This document shows positions 12,903-57,800 of a stretch of 64,000 bases of DNA, one piece after another. The stretch is from assembly GCA_951406725.2 (NCBI GenBank), contig OX597822.1:11594001-11658000 (forward strand). Reading direction: 5' to 3'. Source of the stretch: Octopus vulgaris. Its lineage: Eukaryota. The position numbers and the translations under genes are program-made. The stretch's first letter is position 1, and each line of letters begins with the position of its first letter. The notes under the pieces are model-generated. The model saw nothing but the letters and a program-made list of their open reading frames with translations. It made no database searches and was not told where the DNA came from.

Positions 12903-13129
12903 TATATGTATAGTTCATATAAGTGATATCTACCATTCTATTTAAGTTGAACACTGATTTTCTTCTTACATCTCACTTCTACTAGGTACACCTATTTCCA
13001 AGCTTTTAAGCTTTCATTTTAATTCACATATCGCTCTATGTTTCTCCTTTATTAGTTTTCTGCTTATTCCTTTCTTTTACGCCTCCTCTTTCTATAGGCT
13101 ACCTTTAACGTTATATTTACTCTTTTTTT

Positions 13130-13524
13130 TTCTCTCTTTACTTGTTTCAGTCATTTGACTGTGGCCATGCTGGAGCACCGCCTTTAATCGATCAAATCGA
13201 CCCCAGGACTTATTCTTTGTAAGCCTAGTACTTATTTTATCGGTCACTTTTTTGCCGAACCGCTAAGTTACAGGGACGTAAACACACCAGCATCGGTTGT
13301 CAAGCGATGTTGGGGGGACAAACACAGACACACAAACACGCACATATAAATATACATATATATGAGGGCTTCTTTCAGTTTCCGTCTACCAAATCCACTC
13401 ACAAGGCTTTGGTCGGCCCGGGGCTATAGTAGAAGACACTAGCCCAAGGTGTCACGCAGTGGGACTGAACCCGGAACCATGTGGTTCGTAAGCAAGCTAC
13501 TTACCACACAGCCACTCCTACGCC
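13130..13524 (-). mobile_element. SINE family A, full length
   Basis: Close match to 2167-2610 and 24985-25393. Confidence 0.85.
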
Positions 13525-13551
13525 TATATATATATATATATATATATATGA

Positions 13552-14363: not shown

Positions 14364-14440
<77 letters not shown>

Positions 14441-14561
14441 AGCTTACTTGGAAAAGGATGCGTGGCGTTCGATCATATGATAATATAAATAATATATAAA
14501 TATATGCATATATACATACATATATGTACATAGCTACATATATGTGTATATATACATGCAT

Positions 14562-14960
14562 ATATGGGTACTGCACATAAAAAGAACTTTGAACACAATG
14601 AGAAACAAAAACATAAAAACAAAAATATAGAAAAATGAACTTTTTTTCGAACAACGAAACAAAACAAACAGAGAAACGAGACGTGCAACATAAAGAATAT
14701 TCCCCTTCATAAGTTGTCCCTGTTTCATCTTCTCCGCGTCCGAAGGCAAGGACAATATGCGGCTTCATTGAAACAGTCCTTCCCGCAAAGCAAATCAAAT
14801 AAAATTTGGGATTTTTTGTGGAGGGAAGAGGTGGTAACAAGAATAGGACAGTAAGAACAACTAAACAATAAAGACAAACGGTGAGGGCTGTTACGCCAAG
14901 ACGAAAGAAAAAATATTATGAGCGCTAGAAGAACTAGCTTATGAGAAGCGACTGGTATAA
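14562..14960 (-). mobile_element. Dispersed repeat (second copy 44713-45100) carrying a permuted hammerhead-like motif
   Basis: Both copies start at tatatgggtac.g.aca after TA-rich sequence and share the ttcccctt...gtttc...cgaagg.aagg.ca...gaaaca.tccttcccg.aaa...aatt.gggattttt blocks. Confidence 0.65.
14702..14761 (-). ncRNA. Candidate permuted hammerhead ribozyme, degenerate copy
   Basis: Minus strand: cgca-TA-ttgtcctt-g-ccttc-GGA-cgcg-(13 nt)-agggacaa-CTTATGA-a-gggg. The core is mutated. Confidence 0.35.
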
Positions 14961-15162
14961 GCACGTGGTTTTAATTCTAACTGGATGCAGAATTCTAGCT
15001 GCATTAGGTCTTTTGAATGTGATAAGTAGTACCTGATTCAACTGAATCTTAATTATATCCATATATATATATACATATATAACAAAGTTGAGTTGTGGGG
15101 TATCGCACTAGTGGAATTATATACGAAAGAAGGTTTGAAAATGCAATTTAAAAGATGTTTAT

Positions 15163-15207
15163 TTACTTAACCGGTTTCACTCTTTGGAAAAAGATTGTCA
15201 AAAGTAA
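15163..15207 (-). ncRNA. Minimal type I hammerhead, U3-A8 core variant (left arm)
   Basis: Reverse complement of 17744-17788. Confidence 0.6.
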
Positions 15208-15994
15208 CAGAATATTATGAATTCAAAAAAGTTCTTTACATAATTGCCACATTACATGTATATATACAGTCTTTGGTAACAGGGACATGTTAAGGACATA
15301 AGAAAGTACAACAGTATGATGAGAATATTTGAAAAAATGGGCAGAAAAGATTAAAACAAATATATTATACATCTCAGGGTCTGTACAGAATATTATGAAT
15401 TCAAGGCGAGGTGGTTTACTGACCTGTCCGTTTTAGCAGAAATGTAGAATTGAAAAAGATGTACCCGTTTTTTTCTTTTTTTGGCTTTCCTTCAAGCATC
15501 AATGATTTTGGGGTTAGGATGAGGTGAATATGTGTGTCTCTCTGCGTTTATGTGTGCGTGCATACACATAGATGTGGTGTGAATAGATGTGTCTGTGTGT
15601 CTGTAGTATTTGGTCAGATGCGTCTGTTTGTCAAGTGTGTGTGGTTGTCAAGGTGTTGTGTGTGCGTGTGTGTGCGCGTGCGCGTGTGCGTGTGCGTGCG
15701 TGTGTACGCATGCACGAGTGTGGATGGCATTCGACATGGTGCTGCGTGTGTATATATGTGCCTGTATGGAGGTGAGACTGGTGTGAGTGTGCGTGCCCCT
15801 GTGTGCGTGCACACACACGTATACAAGCGTCTGCGAGTGTGTGGGAGCTGTTTTTGAATGGTTCCAGGGTGGCGAAAATAGACGTGTGTTGTTTAAAGAA
15901 TTTTTGGGGGTAGGATGGTGTGTGTATATATGCGTGCCCGCCCGTGCGCGTGCGCGTCTACGCTTGTGTGCGGGCCATACACACACACTACATA

Positions 15995-16026
<32 letters not shown>

Positions 16027-16559
16027 TCATACACACACACACCACACACACACACACACACACATAATATACCCCCCCCCCACACACAACACACACACAC
16101 ATAATATACAAACACACAACACACACACACATACAGAACACACACACACACAACACACAACGCACACACATATAATACACACACACAACACACAAATATA
16201 ACATATATTTATATATAATATACACACATATGACACACACACACAACACACACACACACATAACACACGCACACATACATACATAATATAAATACAACAC
16301 AAATACACCTAACACATATATACATGCAATACACATACACAGCATATATATAATACACATACACAATATATACATATAACATACATACACAATACATACA
16401 TATAATATATATAGACAATGCATATACATATATACATATATACATATATATAGTGTTTACATACACATACATATACACATAGTGTACACATACATATACA
16501 AAACACATACATATAATATACATATACACAATGACCATGCATATAATGCACATATATAT

Positions 16560-16591
<32 letters not shown>

Positions 16592-17743
16592 TCACACATA
16601 TACACATACATATATATATAATGCACACACACACACACAAAATACATACATATAGCGTACACACACATATATATCTACATACCACACACACACACAAACA
16701 ATGTACTCACATATACACATATACAATGCATACACTCACAACACACACATATATACATATATATAAAACATATACACATACACATATAAATACATACACA
16801 CACACAATGCACACACAGACGCGCACACACACACACACACACACCATCCTACCCCCAAAAATTCTTTAAACAACACACGTCTATTTTCACCACCCTGGAA
16901 CCATTCAAAAACAGCTCCCACACACACGCAGACGCTTGTATACGTGTGTGTGCACGCACACAGGGGCACGCACACTCACACCAGTCTCACCTCCATACAG
17001 GCACATATATACACACGCAGCACCATGTCAAATGCCATCCACACTCATGCATGCGTACACACGCACGCACACGCACACGCGCACGCGCGCACGCGCACAC
17101 GAGCACGCGCACACACACACGCACATACAACACCATGACAACCACACACACTTGACAAACAGACGCCATCTGACCAAATACTACAGACACACAGACACAT
17201 CTATTCACACCACATCTATGTGTATGCACGCACACATAAACGCAGAGAGACACACATATTCACCTCATCCTAACCCCAAAATCATTGATGCTTGAAGGAA
17301 AGCCAAAAAAAGAAAAAAACGGGTACATCTTTTTCAATTCTACATTTCTGCTAAAACGGACAGGTCAGTAAACCACCTCGCCTTGAATTCATAATATTCT
17401 GTACTGACCCTGAGATGTATAATATATTTGTTTTAATCTTTTCTGCCCATTTTTTCAAATATTCTCATCATACTGTTGTACTTTCTTATGTCCTTAACAT
17501 GTCCCTGTTACCAAAGACTGTATACATACATGAAATGTGGCAATTTGCAACAACCAATAATTAACGCAACCAAACTTCCAATAATATATTTGTTTTATTC
17601 TTTTCTGCCCATTTTTTCAAATATTCTCATCACACTGTTGTACTTCTTTATGTCCTTAACATGTCCCTGTTACCAAAGACTGTATATATACATGTAATGT
17701 GGCAATTATGTAAAAAACTTTTTTGAATTCATGATATTCTGTG

Positions 17744-17788
17744 TTACTTTTGACAATCTTTTTCCAAAGAGTGAAACCGGTTAAGTAA
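17744..17788 (+). ncRNA. Minimal type I hammerhead, U3-A8 core variant (right arm)
   Basis: ttactt-TTGACAA-tctttttccaaagagt-GAAA-ccgg-TT-aagtaa: 6-bp stem I, a stem II hairpin and a palindromic accggt stem III. Confidence 0.6.
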
Positions 17789-17834
17789 ATAAACATCTTT
17801 TAAATTGCATTTTCAAACCTTCTTTCGTATATAT

Positions 17835-24171: not shown

Positions 24172-24252
<81 letters not shown>

Positions 24253-24258
24253 TCTTTT

Positions 24259-24660
24259 AGGCGCAGGAGCAGCTGTGTAGTAAGTAACTTGCTTCCCAAC
24301 CACATTGTTCCGGGTTCAGTCCCACTGCATGGCACCTTGGGCAAGTTTCTTTTACTATAGCCTCAGGCCTACAAAAACTTTATGAGTGGATTTGGCTGAC
24401 GGAAACTGAAAGAATCCTGTCGTATGTATATATATATGTATGTGTGTATTAGTGTGTCTGTGTTTGTTACGCCACCATCGTTCGACAACCTATGTTGATG
24501 TGTTTGTGTTCCCGTAACTTGGCGGTTCGGCATAGGAGACCGATAGAATAAGTACTAGGCTTAAAAGAATAAGTCGTGGGGTCGATTTGTTCGATTAAAG
24601 GCTGTGATCCAGCAAGGCCACAATCAAATGGCTAAAAAAATAAATGGATAAAAGAATAAA
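24259..24660 (+). mobile_element. SINE family A
   Basis: Runs from the aggcgcaggagcagctgtgtagtaag head to the aaagaataa tail. Confidence 0.8.
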
Positions 24661-24984
24661 AAATATATATATACTTTATAATTATATACATAATTATAAC
24701 AAGGGGTCGGCTTTATGCCTCTCCACCCACCATAAGAAATAAACGGTAAAGTCTTTTTTTACTACCTTAAAATCTCCGAGAATAACACACTTTATTGTCG
24801 TCGAGTAAAAGAAAAATAATGAATCAATAAGGCTGATTTTAAGATAGTAAGAAAGACTTTAGCGTGGTGAGGCATAAAACTGACCCCTTCTTATAATTAC
24901 GTATATTATTATAAGATAATTTGTAAAATTTATCTATAAGGCTTTTATTTTCGCACTGGTTACCTAGTAAAATTATTACTGATC

Positions 24985-25393
24985 TCTTTTACTCTTTTAC
25001 TCTTTAACTTGTTTCAGTCATTTGACTGCGGCCATGCTGCAGCACCGCCTTTAGTCGAGCAACTCGACCCCGGGACTTATTCTTTTGTAAGCCCAGTACT
25101 TATTCTATCGGTCTCTTTTTTGCCGAACCGCTAAGTGACGGGAACGTAAACACACCAGCATCGGTTGTCAAGCAATGCTAGGGGCACAAACACAGACACA
25201 CAAACACACACATATATATATATATATACATATATACGACAGGCTTCTTTCAGTTTCCGTCTACCAAATCCACTCACAAGGCATTGGTCGGCCCGGGGCT
25301 ATAGCAGAAGACACTTGCCCAAGATGCCACGCAGTGGGACTGAACCCGGAACCATGTGGTTGGTTAGCAAGCTACTTACCACACAGCCACTCC
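24985..25393 (-). mobile_element. SINE family A, nested in the HHR element
   Basis: Full-length copy with ctgat on both flanks (possible TSD). Confidence 0.85.
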
Positions 25394-25599
25394 TGATTCA
25401 AATAATATTTGAATAAATTCACTCCATGATCGAAACTGCATTTACTACGGTCTTCAACTTAACACACACACGTGGGTATAAAAGAAAGATATGAATTATA
25501 CTCGGCAGTATATTTTTATGAGTGTGGATAGATATTGAACATGCGATAACGCTGATCGCGTGTATATTTTAAAATACTCGTGAACTTATACGAAATACT

Positions 25600-36135: not shown

Positions 36136-37120
36136 CACATGTCTGTGCACAATACTAAATGTCATGAATTTGCACTACATTTAACTGAGGACACATTTAT
36201 GCGAGGCGTTTGATAAAAACCAGTCATCATCACCTGAGCTGAAGAGTCAGCTTCCATGAGCAGCTCATTAACGAGTGCCAGCTATACTCAATTCTTAGTG
36301 GACTTCCATCATCGTGTAATGTATGTATATTCCTGTGTACATGCATATGTGTGTATGTGTGTGCGTGTGTGTGGTGGTTAAATGATGCTGTAAGAGAAAT
36401 AAAACGAAAAGATCATAGATTTAACCTTATCAGTTCTGCTACTTCACATGGTTTATAAAATTCATATGCTGCTGGATTCCGTAAATACATGTGGAAAAAT
36501 TAAATGAAATGGGTTTTTTTTCAATATATTTCCATAGTTTTGAAATGCAGGGGAAATTTCACTTTTTTCTGCCTGTCTCGGACTCTCTTTACTCTTGTGG
36601 GTTCTAGGTAGTTAGCAGCTGCTAGTTTGATATGAATTCTTGTATATATAATGTATATTTCGTTAGGAACGTAGCAGAGTACAAAATAGAGCACGCTCCC
36701 CTTAGAATTACTTAATAGCCGCTAGTATTACGATACACGTCCAAGTCTAGGTTTAGGCGTTCGTGTGAAAATAAAATTGAATAAGATAGAGTCAACATGA
36801 AGTAGTACGGCTGGACAGTTATTTTGTAATCACTACACATGTCTCCAATCAACGTAATTTTTCTTTTATACAGGTATTTGCTTATGCAACAGTTTACCTG
36901 TATAATGGATGTGTTAGCATCGAAGTCGAAGGTCTTGTATGTAACGAGAACAGCAATTGAATACCACATGAAGAAATACAACTGCATACCATTATACAGG
37001 TAAACCGTTACATAATCAAACACCTCTATATATGAAGAAGTATGTTGTATGGAAACGTGTACTGATTAAAAAATATCTGTCCTACCGTACTCCTTGTTGA
37101 CTCTATCTTATGTATTCAAG

Positions 37121-37165
<45 letters not shown>

Positions 37166-37283
37166 AATCAAGGAACGGCCATAATAGGCCATTCACCCAC
37201 TAGAAATAACAGCCAAAAGCTTCAACCGCAAAATAACATCAATTCCGTAAACCAGGAGAAAATTAAAAAACATTTACCCTGTA

Positions 37284-37390
37284 ATTTCTTAGACGATGCA
37301 CCGTTTCGTCTACTGTTTAATGGTAAACTAACCTGATTAAATTAAATCAAGCCAATCTACCATAGGCCCTTAGATTCATCAGTAAGAAAT
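37284..37390 (-). ncRNA. Type I hammerhead ribozyme, unit 1 (repeated at 37775, 38267, 38761, 39253, 39746)
   Basis: atttctta-CTGATGA-atcta[long hairpin]tagac-GAAA-cggtgcatcg-TC-taagaaat: 8-bp stem I, intact core, GUC cleavage triplet. Confidence 0.85.
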
Positions 37391-40027
37391 AGCCAAGTCG
37401 GAACAGATATTTTTCACGAGGCATTCCCGTTGCTGCCTCGGCAATATCTGACCTAAAATTTTCAAATCGTCGCACTCGCGCCAAATTTATCGGCAGCAAA
37501 TAAATATAAGCCGCCGATTCCATTACGGAATTAACCAGAAAATTCATAATTAATCAATATAGGGTGGCAAAAAAAATTTTGTAGAATTCTTTTGCCACCA
37601 GCGGCCTAGTGGGAAAAAATTAAATAGTCATAAACCATTTTTAAGTTCAACATCACAATCAAGGAACGGCCATAATAGGCCATTCACCCACTAGAAATAA
37701 CAGCCAAAAGCTTCAACCGCAAAATAACATCAATTCCGTAAACCAGGAGAAAATTAAAAAACATTTACCCTGTAATTTCTTAGACGATGCACCGTTTCGT
37801 CTACTGTTTAATGGTAAACTAACCTGATTAAATTAAATCAAGCCAATCTACCATAGGCCCTTAGATTCATCAGTAAGAAATAGCCAAGTCGGAACAGATA
37901 TTTTTCACGAGGCATTCCCGTTGCTGCCTCGGCAATATCTGACCTAAAATTTTCAAATCGTCGCACTCGCGCCAAATTTATCGGCAGCAAATAAATATAA
38001 GCCGCCGATTCCATTACGGAATTAACCAGAAAATTCATAATTAATCAATATAGGGTGGCAAAAAAAAATTTTGTAGAATTCTTTTGCCACCAGCGGCCTA
38101 GTGGGAAAAAATTAAATAGTCATAAACCATTTTTAAGTTCAACATCACAATCAAGGAACGGCCATAATAGGCCATTCACCCACTAGAAATAACAGCCAAA
38201 AGCTTCAACCGCAAAATAACATCAATTCCGTAAACCAGGAGAAAATTAAAAAACATTTACCCTGTAATTTCTTAGACGATGCACCGTTTCGTCTACTGTT
38301 TAATGGTAAACTAACCTGATTAAATTAAATCAAGCCAATCTACCATAGGCCCTTAGATTCATCAGTAAGAAATAGCCAAGTCGGAACAGATATTTTTCAC
38401 GAGGCATTCCCGTTGCTGCCTCGGCAATATCTGACCTAAAATTTTCAAATCGTCGCACTCGCGCCAAATTTATCGGCAGCAAATAAATATAAGCCGCCGA
38501 TTCCATTACGGAATTAACCAGAAAATTCATAATTAATCAATATAGGGTGGCAAAAAAAAAAATTTTGTAGAATTCTTTTGCCACCAGCGGCCTAGTGGGA
38601 AAAAATTAAATAGTCATAAACCATTTTTAAGTTCAACATCACAATCAAGGAACGGCCATAATAGGCCATTCACCCACTAGAAATAACAGCCAAAAGCTTC
38701 AACCGCAAAATAACATCAATTCCGTAAACCAGGAGAAAATTAAAAAACATTTACCCTGTAATTTCTTAGACGATGCACCGTTTCGTCTACTGTTTAATGG
38801 TAAACTAACCTGATTAAATTAAATCAAGCCAATCTACCATAGGCCCTTAGATTCATCAGTAAGAAATAGCCAAGTCGGAACAGATATTTTTCACGAGGCA
38901 TTCCCGTTGCTGCCTCGGCAATATCTGACCTAAAATTTTCAAATCGTCGCACTCGCGCCAAATTTATCGGCAGCAAATAAATATAAGCCGCCGATTCCAT
39001 TACGGAATTAACCAGAAAATTCATAATTAATCAATATAGGGTGGCAAAAAAAAATTTTGTAGAATTCTTTTGCCACCAGCGGCCTAGTGGGAAAAAATTA
39101 AATAGTCATAAACCATTTTTAAGTTCAACATCACAATCAAGGAACGGCCATAATAGGCCATTCACCCACTAGAAATAACAGCCAAAAGCTTCAACCGCAA
39201 AATAACATCAATTCCATAAACCAGGAGAAAATTAAAAAACATTTACCCTGTAATTTCTTAGACGATGCACCGTTTCGTCTACTGTTTAATGGTAAACTAA
39301 CCTGATTAAATTAAATCAAGCCGATCTACCATAGGCCCTTAGATTCATCAGTAAGAAATAGCCAAGTCGGAACAGATATTTTTCACGAGGCATTCCCGTT
39401 GCTGCCTCGGCAATATCTGACCTAAAATTTTCAAATCGTCGCACTCGCGCCAAATTTATCGGCAGCAAATAAATATAAGCCGCCGATTCCATTACGGAAT
39501 TAACCAGAAAATTCATAATTAATCAATATAGGGTGGCAAAAAAAAAATTTTGTAGAATTCTTTTGCCACCAGCGGCCTAGTGGGAAAAAATTAAATAGTC
39601 ATAAACCATTTTTAAGTTCAACATCACAATCAAGGAACGGCCATAATAGGCCATTCACCCACTAGAAATAACAGCCAAAGGCTTCAACCGCAAAATAACA
39701 TCAATTCCGTAAACCAGGAGAAAATTAAAAAACATTTACCCTGTAATTTCTTAGACGATGCACCGTTTCGTCTACTGTTTAATGGTAAACTAACCTGATT
39801 AAATTAAATCAAGCCAATCTACCATAGGCCCTTAGATTCATCAGTAAGAAATAGCCAAGTCGGAACAGATATTTTTCACGAGGCATTCCCGTTGCTGTCT
39901 CGGCAATATCTGACCTAAAATTTTCAAATCGTCGCACTCGCGCCAAATTTATCGGCAGCAAATAAATATAAGCCGCCGATTCCATTACGGAATTAACCAG
40001 AAAATTCATAATTAATCAATATAGGCT

Positions 40028-40134
40028 ATTTCTTACTGATGAATCTAAGGGCCTATGGTAGATTGGCTTGATTTAATTTAATCAGGTTAGTTTACCATTA
40101 AACAGTAGACGAAACGGTGCATCGTCTAAGAAAT
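40028..40134 (+). ncRNA. Type I hammerhead ribozyme, inverted arm copy 1
   Basis: Same motif read directly on the plus strand. Confidence 0.85.
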
Positions 40135-40516
40135 TACAGGGTAAATGTTTTTAATTTTCTCCTGGTTTACGGAATTGATGTTATTTTGCGGTTGAAGCTT
40201 TTGGCTGTTATTTCTAGTGGGTGAATGGCCTATTATGGCCGTTCCTTGATTGTAATGTTGAACTTAAAAATGGTTTATGACTATTTAATTTTTTCCCACT
40301 AGGCCGCTGGTGGCAAAAGAATTCTACAAAATTTTTTTTTGCCACCCTATATTGATTAATTATGAATTTTCTGGTTAATTCCATAATGGAATCGGCGGTT
40401 ATATTTATTTGCTGCCGATAAATTTGGCGCGAGTGCGACGATTTGAAAATTTTAGGTCAGATATTGCCGAGGCAGCAACGGGAATGCCTCGGGAAAATAT
40501 CTGTTCCGACTTGGCT

Positions 40517-40623
40517 ATTTCTTACTGATGAATCTAAGGGCCTATGGTAGATTGGCTTGATTTAATTTAATCAGGTTAGTTTACCATTAAACAGTAGACG
40601 AAACGGTGCATCGTCTAAGAAAT
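40517..40623 (+). ncRNA. Type I hammerhead ribozyme, inverted arm copy 2
   Basis: Same motif read directly on the plus strand. Confidence 0.85.
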
Positions 40624-40852
40624 TACAGGGTAAATGTTTTTTTAATTTTCTCCTGGTTTACGGAATTGATGTTATTTTGCGGTTGAAGCTTTTGGCTGTT
40701 ATTTCTAGTGGGTGAATGGCCTATTATGGCCGTTCCTTGATTGTGATGTTGAACTTAAAAATGGTTTATGACTATTTAATTTTTTCCCACTAGGCCGCTG
40801 GTGGCAAAAGAATTCTACAAATTTATTTTTTTTTTTTGCCACCCTATATTGA

Positions 40853-40902
<50 letters not shown>

Positions 40903-44380: not shown

Positions 44381-44712
44381 GAGAGACAGAGAGAAACAGA
44401 GAGAGAGAGAGAGAGAGGAGACAAAAACAGAGAGTTAATAGGGTTCGGGGAGTGAAAGAAACAGTTATAGAGAGTAAGTGAGTGTAAATATAATAATGAG
44501 AGACGTATACACAGACACCCATTAAATTTGCATTATACACACATACTTATATACATACAAACATACAAATTGTTATTATATTTATATATATATAAAAACA
44601 ATTTAATAAATAAAACATATGCATATATACATACATATATGTACATACCTACATATATGTACATGTCTACATCTATATACATACCTACATCTATATATAT
44701 ATATACATGCAT

Positions 44713-45100
44713 ATATGGGTACAGGACACCAAAAAATCCTAGAACACAACGAGAAACGAAAACTTAAAAATAAAAACATGGAAACAGAGTACAAGACATA
44801 CAACACAAGGAAGATTCCCCTTCCTCAGCTGCCCCTGTTTCGACTTATTGCGTGGTTCGAAGGTAAGGGCAGGACACGACCCCGCCGAAACAATCCTTCC
44901 CGTAAACCAAACCAAACAAATTTTTGGGATTTTTTTGCGGAGGGGTAAAAAAGTTACAAGAACAGGACAGTAGAAGCAATACAAATAAAGATAAAAACAG
45001 TAAAAGGCAGGACAAGGAGAAACAAACGATAAGGGCATCTTTAAGCGTAGACGGCGGAAAAATTCATTTGAACGCATTGAGAGAACGGCTTACGAAGACA
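44713..45100 (-). mobile_element. Dispersed repeat (same family as 14562-14960) carrying a permuted hammerhead-like motif
   Basis: Blocks shared with 14562-14960. The right boundary is uncertain. Confidence 0.65.
44817..44878 (-). ncRNA. Candidate permuted or pseudoknotted hammerhead ribozyme
   Basis: Minus strand: cgtg-TC-ctgccctt-a-ccttc-GAAC-cacg-(14 nt)-aggggcag-CTGAGGA-a-gggg. Stems I and III covary with the 14.7-kb copy. Confidence 0.5.
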
Positions 45101-45531
45101 GTAGAAGCCGTTGTTGACTTGTTGAAGGTTGTAGTCAGAAAGAAAGTTAGTAGCCCTCTGGTCAGCGACGAGAGGGAGGAGGAGGAGTGTGAGAGAGAGG
45201 AGAAGAAACCAGAAAGGATGAAAGATAAGAGAGGGAGAGAGACATTGTTAGATCGGATGTTCCTGGAAGAATGTAGCTCCTCAATCAGTGCGTGCCAGTT
45301 ATGTTTTGAATTATTGTTGGATTGCTTTGCTGTTTACAAAGAGGTGGGCGATTCATTGTTTTAAAATTTTTTGTTGAAACCATTTGGTTATTCGTGGAAA
45401 CTTTGTTGGACTGTTTTTGAAGACAATCTTTTTGTATGTTGCCCCCGTATGGGAAAGCTCGAAAATGGAAGAGTGAAGAAGTGGAAAAAATTGTTCAAAA
45501 AACATTAATAGAAGAAATTGAGGAAAAGGAT

Positions 45532-50890: not shown

Positions 50891-51839
50891 TGATGAGAGT
50901 ATAGGAGCAGACGAGTTCTCGTTTCTTTTATTCTGCCTGAGTTGTGGTCCTTGTGTAACGAATACTCCTTGTTGCTGCCGCTATGATATTGTCTTCTAAT
51001 GTTTGTCATGTTCTCAAAAACACTTTAGTGCGATTGTCGGCCATTTCCTCCAGTATATATTTAGAGATAGACAGAGACATAACTAGAATGAAGAAATACG
51101 GAAGTGGGAGGGAAAAGGAAAGATTGCATAAGCTGCGCAAATCGATGAGTGTATATAATTTTTGCGGCTCGGCAAAAGAAACCGATAGAATAAGTATCAG
51201 GATTAACAAAAGTACTGGGGATAATTCGTTCGACTAAAATTTTTCAAGACAGTGCCCCAGGATGGCCGCAGATTACCATGCTATAATTTCGTATGGAAAT
51301 TGCAAATTCATTAGTAGCTTCTGCTTCGTCGCTGGATGGTTCAGCCTAAAACCTAACGGTCGGTATATATGTATTTACTATTAGAACGTAGGGCTGCTTC
51401 AGCAAGATGCTAATGTAAAAATTATAAATAATAAAAGTGGCGGTATGCAATATTAAACCAAGAAGGAAAAATTGAATTGTCATTTGTTGTAGCTGAGGAT
51501 GCAGGGTAGCACTTACATTACTAGAAATGTAATACATATACAAATATATGTTATTTAATAAACGCACTATAGGTTATTTATGTGCTACTAATAGCTACCT
51601 GTGCTGAGAACATGCCAAACTATGAATTATAACATGCGTAACAGGTCCGCATAGCCATCAAGCACAAGCCACATAGCATAACTAAAAATTAAATAAGAGA
51701 AGAAACGCGAAAATTCGAGAAGGAAGCATATAAAAACGCGCAAGATTAAAAAAAAAAACGGAAAACGAAAATGTAATCAGAAATAAATGACAAGGTAAAA
51801 GAGTTCTCTCCCTTATGCCTTAAATTAGGCATATTATTC

Positions 51840-52278
51840 CTTTATTCTTTTATTTGTTTCAGTCGTTTGATTGCGGCTATGTTGGAGCACCACATTTAGT
51901 CGAACAAATCGATTCCAGGACTTATTCTTTGGAAGCCTAGCACTTATTATATCGGTCTCTTTTGCCGAACTGCTAAGTTACGGGGACGTAAACACACTAG
52001 CATCGGTTGTCAAGCGATTGTGAGGGAATAAATACAGACACAGAAACACACACATACACAAACACACACACATACACAAACACACACACATACACAAACA
52101 CACACACATATATATATATACGATGGGCTTCTTTCAGTTTCCTTCTGCCAGATCAACTCACAATGGCTTGGTCGCCCCGGGGCTATAGTAGAAAACACTT
52201 GACCAAGTTGCGACGCAGTGGGACTGAACCCAGAATCATGTGGTTGGTAAGGCAGCTACTTACCACACAGCCACTCCT
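51840..52278 (-). mobile_element. SINE family A
   Basis: Family A sequence with an internal CA-type repeat. Confidence 0.8.
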
Positions 52279-56130: not shown

Positions 56131-56256
56131 CACACGCATATGTAGACACACGCATGCCAATGTGTGGCACCTTTGGCAAGTGTCTTCTTGTATAGCCTCG
56201 GACCGACCAAAGCCTTGTGAGTGGATTTGGTAGATGGAAACTGAAAGAAGCCCGTC

Positions 56257-56296
<40 letters not shown>

Positions 56297-56298
<2 letters not shown>

Positions 56299-56914
56299 TC
56301 ACAATCAAGGAACGGCCATAATAGGCCATTCACCCACTAGAAATAACAGCCAAAAGCTTTAACCGCAAAATAACATTAATACCGTAAACCAGGAGAAAAT
56401 TGAAAAACTTTTACCCTGTAATTTCTTAGACGATGCACCGTTTCATCTACCGTTTGATGGTAAACTAACCTGATTAAATTAAATCAAGCCAATCCACCAT
56501 AGGCCCTTAGACTCATCAGTAAGAAATAGCCAAATCGGAACAGATATTTTTCACGAGGCATTCCTCTTGCTACCTCGGCAATATCTGACCTAAAATTTTC
56601 AAATCGTCGCACTCGCGCCAAATTTATCGGCAGCAAATAAATATAAGCCCCCGATTCCATTACGGAACTAACCAGAAAATTCATAATTAATCAATATAGG
56701 GTGGCAAAAAAATTTTGTAGAATTCTTTTGCCACCAGCGGCCTAGTAGGAAAAAATTAAATAGTCATAAACCATTTTTACGTTCAACATCACAATCAAGG
56801 AACGGCCATAATAGGCCATTCACCCACTAGAAATAACAGCCAAAAGCTTTAACCGCAAAATAACATTAATACCGTAAACCAGGAGAAAATTGAAAAACTT
56901 TTACCCTATATTGA

Positions 56915-56919
<5 letters not shown>
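56297..56919 (-). mobile_element. Dispersed ~1.25-unit copy of the 492-bp retrozyme-like repeat, inside the (TA)n of a family A SINE (56160-57207)
   Basis: Slightly diverged from the array. It has the same start (atcacaatcaagg) and the same inverted terminus (ccctatattgattaat). Confidence 0.9.
56421..56527 (-). ncRNA. Type I hammerhead ribozyme
   Basis: atttctta-CTGATGA-gtcta...tagat-GAAA-cggtgcatcg-TC-taagaaat. Confidence 0.85.
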
Positions 56920-56987
<68 letters not shown>

Positions 56988-57800
56988 GTGTATTTGTTAT
57001 TTGTGTCTGTTTGCCCTCTTCACCATCGCTTGACAACCGATGTTGGTGCGATTACATCCCGTCAACTAGCGGTTCGGCAAAAAGAGTCCGATAGAATAAG
57101 TACTAGGTTTACAAAGAATACGTCCTGGGGTCGATTTGTTCGACTAAAGGCGGTGCTCCAACATGGCCGCAGTCAAATGACTGAAACAACTAAAAGAATA
57201 AAAGAATAATCGAATATAGAAAATAGATTTCAAATATATTAATTTAATAACTACAATTAATAAATATGTGATCATTGTGTATTTTCGAGTGAGTCCTAGA
57301 AATAGTTGTGGGAGAAATGAAATATTTGAAATAGCAAGATGAACGATGGGTTCCCTATTCTTCTATTCCTATTCTTTCTATACTAGACCCCTATCCACTA
57401 GCTGGAGAAGCGGTGCTCTCAGACACGAAGCCTCCATTGATGATGTGGTGTTGAGTTATCTCCTATTTTCTCCATGTCTCTTTCGAAATACTTTTCGTTC
57501 AAGATTGATGAAATAACTAGCAGACAAAAGTAATGTTGTTATCGTAAGCGAATAGGAAGCTTGAAATCTTTGCCCCAGTATGGCCACAGAGAAACGATTG
57601 AAATCGGTAGAAGAAGAATGAAAGATGGCATCGCTTTGTTCTTCAAACAAAAGGTTAACTTTGATGTGAGGTAAAGATTCTGCAAGATATATTATGATTC
57701 GCGTTCACACGTAACAGTGCTCTGTCAATTCTCGTGTCCGGTTTCATATGGTTTGATGTGTGTGTGTATTTCTGTATGTATATATATGTATATATATGCA

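Follow-up and report, generated by a model that had tools for sequence, protein, structure and literature searches.

The window analysed here, 64,000 nucleotides of Octopus vulgaris contig OX597822.1 (positions 11,594,001 to 11,658,000), contains two copies of a dispersed repeat, each of which carries on its minus strand the three conserved strands of a hammerhead ribozyme in the non-circular order A-C-B (table 1; the strands are called blocks S, G and C there and below). In copy 1 they are read directly from the window sequence at 44878-44817, just as the original prediction placed them, and this site is the sole match to a relaxed descriptor of the arrangement in the 64-kb window, with no match in 100 first-order Markov windows. 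For the paralogue, copy 2 (14761-14702), the same layout had been described, and it is indeed present, but the CGCA/CGCG pairing put forward as a compensatory change in stem III is a mismatch due to decay, its subfamily having CGCG/CGCG. The 5' end of copy 1 lies about 400 nt ahead of the predicted cut site.

Table 1. Features of the two repeat copies (positions are those of the window; block S, block G and block C are also given by their parts)
Feature	Position	Strand	Evidence or remark
Copy 1, Penelope-like element without an ORF, subfamily A, 5'-truncated	44591..45244 (ends approximate)	-	3' end enters (TA)n
Purine box GGAAGGA	44894..44900	-	Complementary to II' (GAAGG/CCUUC); alternatively to downstream UCCUU
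P0 5' strand	44884..44893	-	5'-strand predictions; duplex-energy test
Block S: III' CGUG, U16.1, C17, stem I strand CUGCC	44868..44878	-	Predicted cut 44873/44872
Parts of block S	III' CGUG 44878-44875; U44874; C44873; stem I strand from 44872	-	Sequence
Linker, stem I to stem II'	44864..44867	-	3-5 nt across subfamilies
Block G: II' CCUUC, GAAC, III CACG	44851..44863	-	Family GAAA; A15.1 lost in copy 1
Parts of block G	CCUUC 44863-44859; GAAC 44858-44855; CACG 44854-44851	-	Sequence
P0 3' strand	44835..44844	-	Runs nearly straight into stem I'
Block C: I' GGCAG, CUGAGGA, extra A, stem II strand GGGG	44817..44833	-	Sequence and covariation
Parts of block C	GGCAG 44833-44829; CUGAGGA 44828-44822; extra A; GGGG 44820-44817	-	Sequence
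UCCUU, possible alternative partner of the purine box	44807..44811	-	Without covariation support
Copy 2, subfamily D, 30-40 nt 3' extension with GTAAG donor-like site, then (TATC)n	14439..14965 (ends approximate)	-	
Decayed SGC core of copy 2: CGCA-UA-UUGUC, CCUUC-GGA-CGCG, GACAA-CUUAUGA-A-GGGG	14702..14761	-	

Core mutations had been noted in both copies, and neither has the full CUGANGA/GAAA/U-H core (GAAC in copy 1; GGA and CUUAUGA in copy 2). GAAC is private to copy 1: among its 30 nearest copies, 29 have GAAA and 28 have CUGANGA. The mutated core positions matter for hammerhead function, and the one lost in copy 1 is, in hammerhead numbering, A15.1. With A15.1 lost in copy 1 and two core defects in copy 2, both window copies are decayed and probably inactive.

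The O. vulgaris genome is 2.8 Gb long and rich in microsatellites. A first look at the dispersed repeat in which the motif lies gave 3,219 candidates, 40 of which were scored; a genome search with exact patterns running from block G to block C then found 1,838 copies with CUGAUGA and 3,582 with CUGAAGA, and none with reversed-pattern controls, which puts the family at no fewer than 5,420 exact-core copies. Two of its subfamilies are young (96-99% identity among the best-scoring copies), and that of copy 2 is older (88-91%). The core pattern has no match in viral contigs and seven in metagenome contigs, none of which has the flanks of the family when inspected by eye. Among public sequencing runs no RNA run with the unit is on record; parts of the unit occur in 19 runs under four organism labels, and these were left out of the evidence. 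A GTAAG donor-like site lies just past the TA-rich unit end (L123:1080-1090 and 1520-1530; window 14441-14450), and in several subfamilies a pyrimidine tract with a CAG acceptor-like site stands just ahead of the purine box.

The consensus of the family has CUGANGA, GAAA and U-H in its core, and the covariation sought in all three stems is found in stems I and III and not in stem II, which is invariant within the family. In 48 aligned copies from across the subfamilies 97% of 664 cells pair, and 7 of the 14 pairs have changed on both sides; the covariation score of 0.373 was reached by none of 500 shuffles, the best slid control scoring 0.144. Because relatedness inflates covariation counts, the changes were also placed on a tree made from the 3' flank alone. 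On its internal branches stem I shows five double changes and no breaks, stem III three double changes, four changes that keep or restore a pair and one break, and stem II no change. In a blind test the unseen 5' strands at 29 loci were written down from their 3' strands and then fetched. Block S was lost at eight of these loci; at the 21 testable ones a 5-bp stem I was fully paired in every case and a 4-bp stem III in 17, although some predicted Watson-Crick pairs were wobbles. Subfamilies F, G and M do not form the predicted sixth and seventh pairs of stem I. Only five of the eight base pairs proposed for stem I are therefore supported, which makes the I-to-II' link 3-5 nt long instead of the single nucleotide first proposed.

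The "14-nt" stretch between stem III and stem I' (14-17 nt across the family) proves to be the 3' strand of a further covarying helix, P0, which closes the stem III hairpin across an internal loop and is followed by 0-2 nt before stem I'. In 19 representatives, hand-picked as intact, the duplex of a P0 strand with its own partner averages -10.5 kcal/mol versus -5.4 kcal/mol with partners from other subfamilies, a result that none of 20,000 permutations reached, and the own partner ranked first in 11 of the 19; several single P0 predictions in the blind test had one or two mismatches or a bulge. A second GAAA (44841-44838) was considered as the true block G and rejected, since it is part of P0 and other subfamilies have a different sequence there. 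In subfamilies B, D, L and N (for example L083:1547-1645), and not in A or C, P0 and stem III are separated by an internal loop GAA/AGUA that resembles a loop-E motif.

Stem II had been noted to be weak, and it does hold two G.U pairs; 98% of its cells are paired, yet it is invariant. Its G10.1-C11.1 and G.U pairs recur in the core of a Naiad element discussed below, in which further block C pairs fail. The invariance may also stem from the upstream purine box, which is complementary to II': GAAGG of the box complements CCUUC, and GACAC complements GUGUC at the matching Naiad site (by eye, in one comparison). Judged by complementarity, the box could either complete stem II or hold stem II off. 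There is in addition an alternative register in which G8-A9-A-G-G and CCUUC form five Watson-Crick pairs, and this would break the core. No covarying helix directly joining the two flanks of block C was found, and P0 and the purine box may stand in for one. Single-strand folds of nine sequences, a prediction that does not model pseudoknots, are no more stable than those of shuffled sequences (z from -1.64 to +0.35) and lack the full fold; copy 1 folds otherwise in them.

With its family core intact and stems I and III covarying, the motif appears to be what was first suggested, a double-pseudoknot hammerhead in a non-circular order, and the history of the subfamilies points to selection on that fold. 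Block C and its 3' flank do resemble by eye a canonical type I hammerhead elsewhere in the genome (L042), as they might if the arrangement were a chance one or type I debris passively amplified in a repeat. Compensatory changes, the blind test and the descriptor control all argue against such an origin, which we consider extremely improbable, and the repeated compensatory changes on internal branches seem largely to refute it.

The original prediction held that no such topology had been described. It has been: Eckert et al. (2023, PMC10085705) denote A-C-B as S-G-C, and their HRIMA-1 and SGC variants include type SGC ribozymes validated in vitro, with rates of 0.007-0.19 per min. That paper reports non-circular permutations from environmental sequence with no known host or role; its search covered RefSeq and gave SGC from metatranscriptomes and none in genomes of known organisms. 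The family studied here shares with the published type the S-G-C order, two pseudoknots, the conserved core, a 5-bp stem I and a short link between stems I and II (there typically of 3 nt). Common to both are also an extra nucleotide that can follow CUGAnGA and a helix strand directly 5' of block C. It differs in that the published helix pairs the 5' and 3' flanks of block C, whereas here the 5' flank pairs upstream of block S to form P0; in addition this family has A as the extra nucleotide, frequently A at N7, and 14-17 nt between stem III and stem I'. The published SGC descriptor requires CUGAUGAG or CUGAUGAUG and allows a III-to-I' distance of up to 15 nt; since the family reads CUGAnGA-A-G, that descriptor would miss it. 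Descriptors of types I to III miss the A-C-B order altogether, as had been foreseen, S-G-C not being a circular permutation of the three-way junction. The Rfam search recommended with the prediction brought no support: among the 150 of 319 matches listed at E<=5 there is no hammerhead and only low-complexity matches to miRNA models. In a full-text literature search that took in few subscription journals and was judged by titles and the openings of abstracts, the term "type-SGC" was found only in the Eckert paper, and a non-circular hammerhead in an animal genome or retroelement was not found. The topology is thus known, and it is the class of host, the periphery and the indirect evidence of activity that appear to be new.

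That evidence comes from the 5' ends of the copies. A tail sample was drawn with a word that lies in the tail some 170 nt downstream of the cut and has 1,678 matches in all; the first 51 matching copies on contig C1 were taken, among them two near-identical ones and a few that are tandem or inverted partners. A prediction fixed before sampling was borne out: counted from the predicted cut, nine copies begin at +6 to +13 (five at +6) and one at -70 to -16, and the interval -15 to -1 contains no start. The number expected in the 0-14 nt bin was 1.05 (Poisson P 1.7e-6, or 4e-5 allowing for 23 bins). In a second sample, chosen without sight of block S, 14 of 60 copies begin at 0 to +8 and again none at -15 to -1; 29 further copies without a tail anchor were dropped from it, several of which also begin in the bin when judged by eye, and one spike locus is common to both samples. 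Copies thus pile up just past the bond between 44873 and 44872 at which cleavage had been predicted. The earliest ends are at 0/+1. Of the copies long enough to reach the site, about one in four ends there and about three in four read through. Five tail-sample copies scored at -528 to -544 run on into upstream tail sequence, and L277, by eye, extends through one complete unit and has its 5' end at about +6 of the core that follows upstream. The peak is at +6/+7 rather than 0, so a further step is needed; microhomology between the UA of the linker and the TA target would best explain the offset.

This edge suggests cleavage in vivo, and the mixture of stopping and reading through would fit either a multimeric RNA that is cleaved incompletely or templates of two kinds, linear cut RNA and re-ligated circles, as proposed for animal retrozymes (PMC7229834; preprint 10.64898/2026.07.22.740005). 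The same spike could in principle arise on a conserved structure that does not cut and serves as a handle for a Penelope-like element (PLE) protein, through stalling of the reverse transcriptase (RT), an internal transcription start or a host nuclease. A weak and invariant stem II, the competing pairings and the reading through of most copies would all suit such a handle. We regard it as improbable: the stems change, yet at least 5,420 copies retain the catalytic nucleotides, and the edge falls at the predicted bond. Stalling at a structure should moreover leave a pile-up where the enzyme meets P0 and stem I' from their 3' side, about +35 to +45, and no pile-up lies there.

The carrier has the anatomy of a PLE. 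The 3' end of its copies is constant and lies in (TA)n, and their 5' ends vary through 5' truncation; tandem units of 758, about 800 and 836 nt and partial tandems occur, a 5' inverted piece is present in about 33 of 196 loci (a rough heuristic count in which some loci are duplicated), and 6 of 30 copies have a 30-40 nt extension. In the account of insertions given by Craig et al. (2021, PMC8557442), 5' truncation, partial tandems, a 5' inverted copy, a tail of 30-40 nt and a microsatellite target are the hallmarks of PLEs, and the family shows truncation, tandems, the inverted piece, the tail and the microsatellite target. The unit has no ORF of note. An apparent vestigial ORF resembling a PLE N-terminus was abandoned, as tblastn finds no such similarity even at E 50. 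None of the 53 GIY-YIG loci examined ends in the motif of the family. An intact PLE family encoding a 781-aa RT with C-terminal GIY-YIG domain is present in many open copies (L171-L173; C16:20835000-20842500); it and the other sampled coding families were rejected as sharers of the 3' end, their 3' ends being without the motif, and a scan of the 781-aa family found no hammerhead. At L194 an inverted end of this element is joined directly to the 5' end of a copy of the family. Tail-to-tail counts were discarded because the AT-rich tail is self-complementary.

In having a non-coding tandem unit with one hammerhead per unit and thousands of copies, the family resembles the animal non-LTR retrozymes described by Cervera and de la Peña (2020, PMC7229834) and Li et al. 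(2026, preprint 10.64898/2026.07.22.740005), which are proposed to derive from PLE pseudo-LTRs. Retrozymes are defined by type I hammerheads and units of 150-450 bp, whereas here the hammerhead is of type SGC, the units are 760-840 nt long and most copies are 5'-truncated and solo, many loci having a single core. We hold it highly likely that the family carries a genuine type-SGC hammerhead and that its unit is a non-autonomous, retrozyme-like Penelope-like element, which would be mobilised in trans by a PLE RT/GIY-YIG protein.

The fold and the insertion pattern can be combined into one scheme. Covariation shows that stems III and I form, and that P0 lengthens the stem III hairpin across the internal loop and ends beside distal stem I. 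Block C would then dock on the apical loop by way of stem I (5 bp) and a short stem II, with the extra A following CUGANGA. The purine box might complete distal stem II and so create a second junction of I, II and P0 that holds stems I and II together, or might sequester II' as an off state. The RNA would cut after N-U-H, incompletely if the genomic fossils are a guide, and the UA-rich tail would be where the PLE enzyme primes on (TA)n. With a cut template the enzyme would run off near the cut, leaving short copies whose 5' ends lie 0-14 nt past it; templates that are uncut, multimeric or re-ligated into circles would be read through to give longer and partly tandem copies.

The same core could act as a strand-swapped dimer, in which a rigid hairpin of P0 and stem III would receive, at its loop, block C from a second molecule or repeat. 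With 0-2 nt between the P0 3' strand and stem I', a monomer would have to make a U-turn at the internal loop (a geometric argument); tandem copies place two cores on one transcript, and PMC7229834 reports dimeric action for amphibian retrozyme hammerheads. On the other hand, some SGC ribozymes have a 0-nt link from the I-II helix to stem III, and the SGC RNAs tested cut during transcription (both in PMC10085705), and many loci hold only one core. We rate the dimer as less likely than not.

Naiad PLEs are reported by Craig et al. to be without canonical hammerheads, eight being marked "HHR_half_core", and the same source calls the role of hammerheads in PLEs unclear (PMC8557442). As it presents them, Naiads have the same insertion anatomy and (TA)n targets as our family, which differs in having no ORF and a different II', P0 and tail; its young subfamilies (96-99% identity) also contrast with the cephalopod Naiads, which are described there as old remnants. 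Several Naiad consensus sequences in the supplement of that paper were inspected by eye at their 3' ends. Naiad_Ovul, a coding Naiad consensus, and the record preceding it end in an S-G-C core. In Naiad_Ovul this has stem III AUGG/CCAU, a U-A site, stem I CUGCCC/GGGCAG, an extra U after CUGAUGA and just 2 bp of stem II from block C, and the upstream box GACAC that is complementary to II' GUGUC is accompanied by a short P0-like helix. Its motif has 129 exact copies in the O. vulgaris genome when searched by box, S and G and 100 by S, G and C (controls 0), so that a second, separate SGC family of at least 100-129 exact copies matches the Naiad_Ovul 3' end (e.g. C1:28004772-28004840). In the nematode Naiad_Hpol and the record preceding it the 3' end has type CSG cores with long perfect stems, an order that Eckert et al. 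knew from just two metagenome DNA sequences (PMC10085705). Among the other 3' ends inspected, again by eye, Naiad_Esco has the S-G-C order with stems I and III and without stem II, Naiad-3_Dst and its preceding record show no such fold, and those of Naiad_Omin and Naiad_Adux have no core.

We lean, with some reserve, to the wider view that non-circularly permuted hammerheads are a regular and overlooked part of PLEs across animal phyla (SGC in cephalopods, CSG in nematodes), which would explain part of the reported absence of hammerheads from Naiads. In O. vulgaris an SGC variant with a new cage-like periphery, made up of the P0 strut and a box that switches stem II, would cut germ-line RNA at a tuned, partial rate and so determine the 5' end in about one of four insertions that extend as far as the site. 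The family places a non-circular hammerhead in an animal genome in thousands of copies, whose 5' ends are a genomic record of the predicted position of the RNA cut, and their edge makes the role of PLE hammerheads testable from genome sequence alone. Surveys of eukaryotic hammerheads by type I-III descriptors would undercount, and a re-scan of supposedly "ribozyme-free" PLE clades with all six orders is warranted.

Other repeats share the window. A 492-nt tandem repeat at 37078-40860 and 56215-57004, with 99% identical units and an inverted block, has a canonical type I hammerhead with a long stem II insert and is a classic non-LTR retrozyme. Other short elements, at window 10624 and at further genomic loci (L042 minus 249, L020 minus 1173, L067 minus 1001, L254 plus 2657 and L039), have type I hammerheads or cores. 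A large inverted repeat at 15118-17833 has arms of 250-380 nt at 93-99% identity and an AC-rich core, and a SINE-like repeat of about 400 nt is present in about a dozen window copies (2137-2611, 13108-13525, 24243-25410, 51830-52278 and others).
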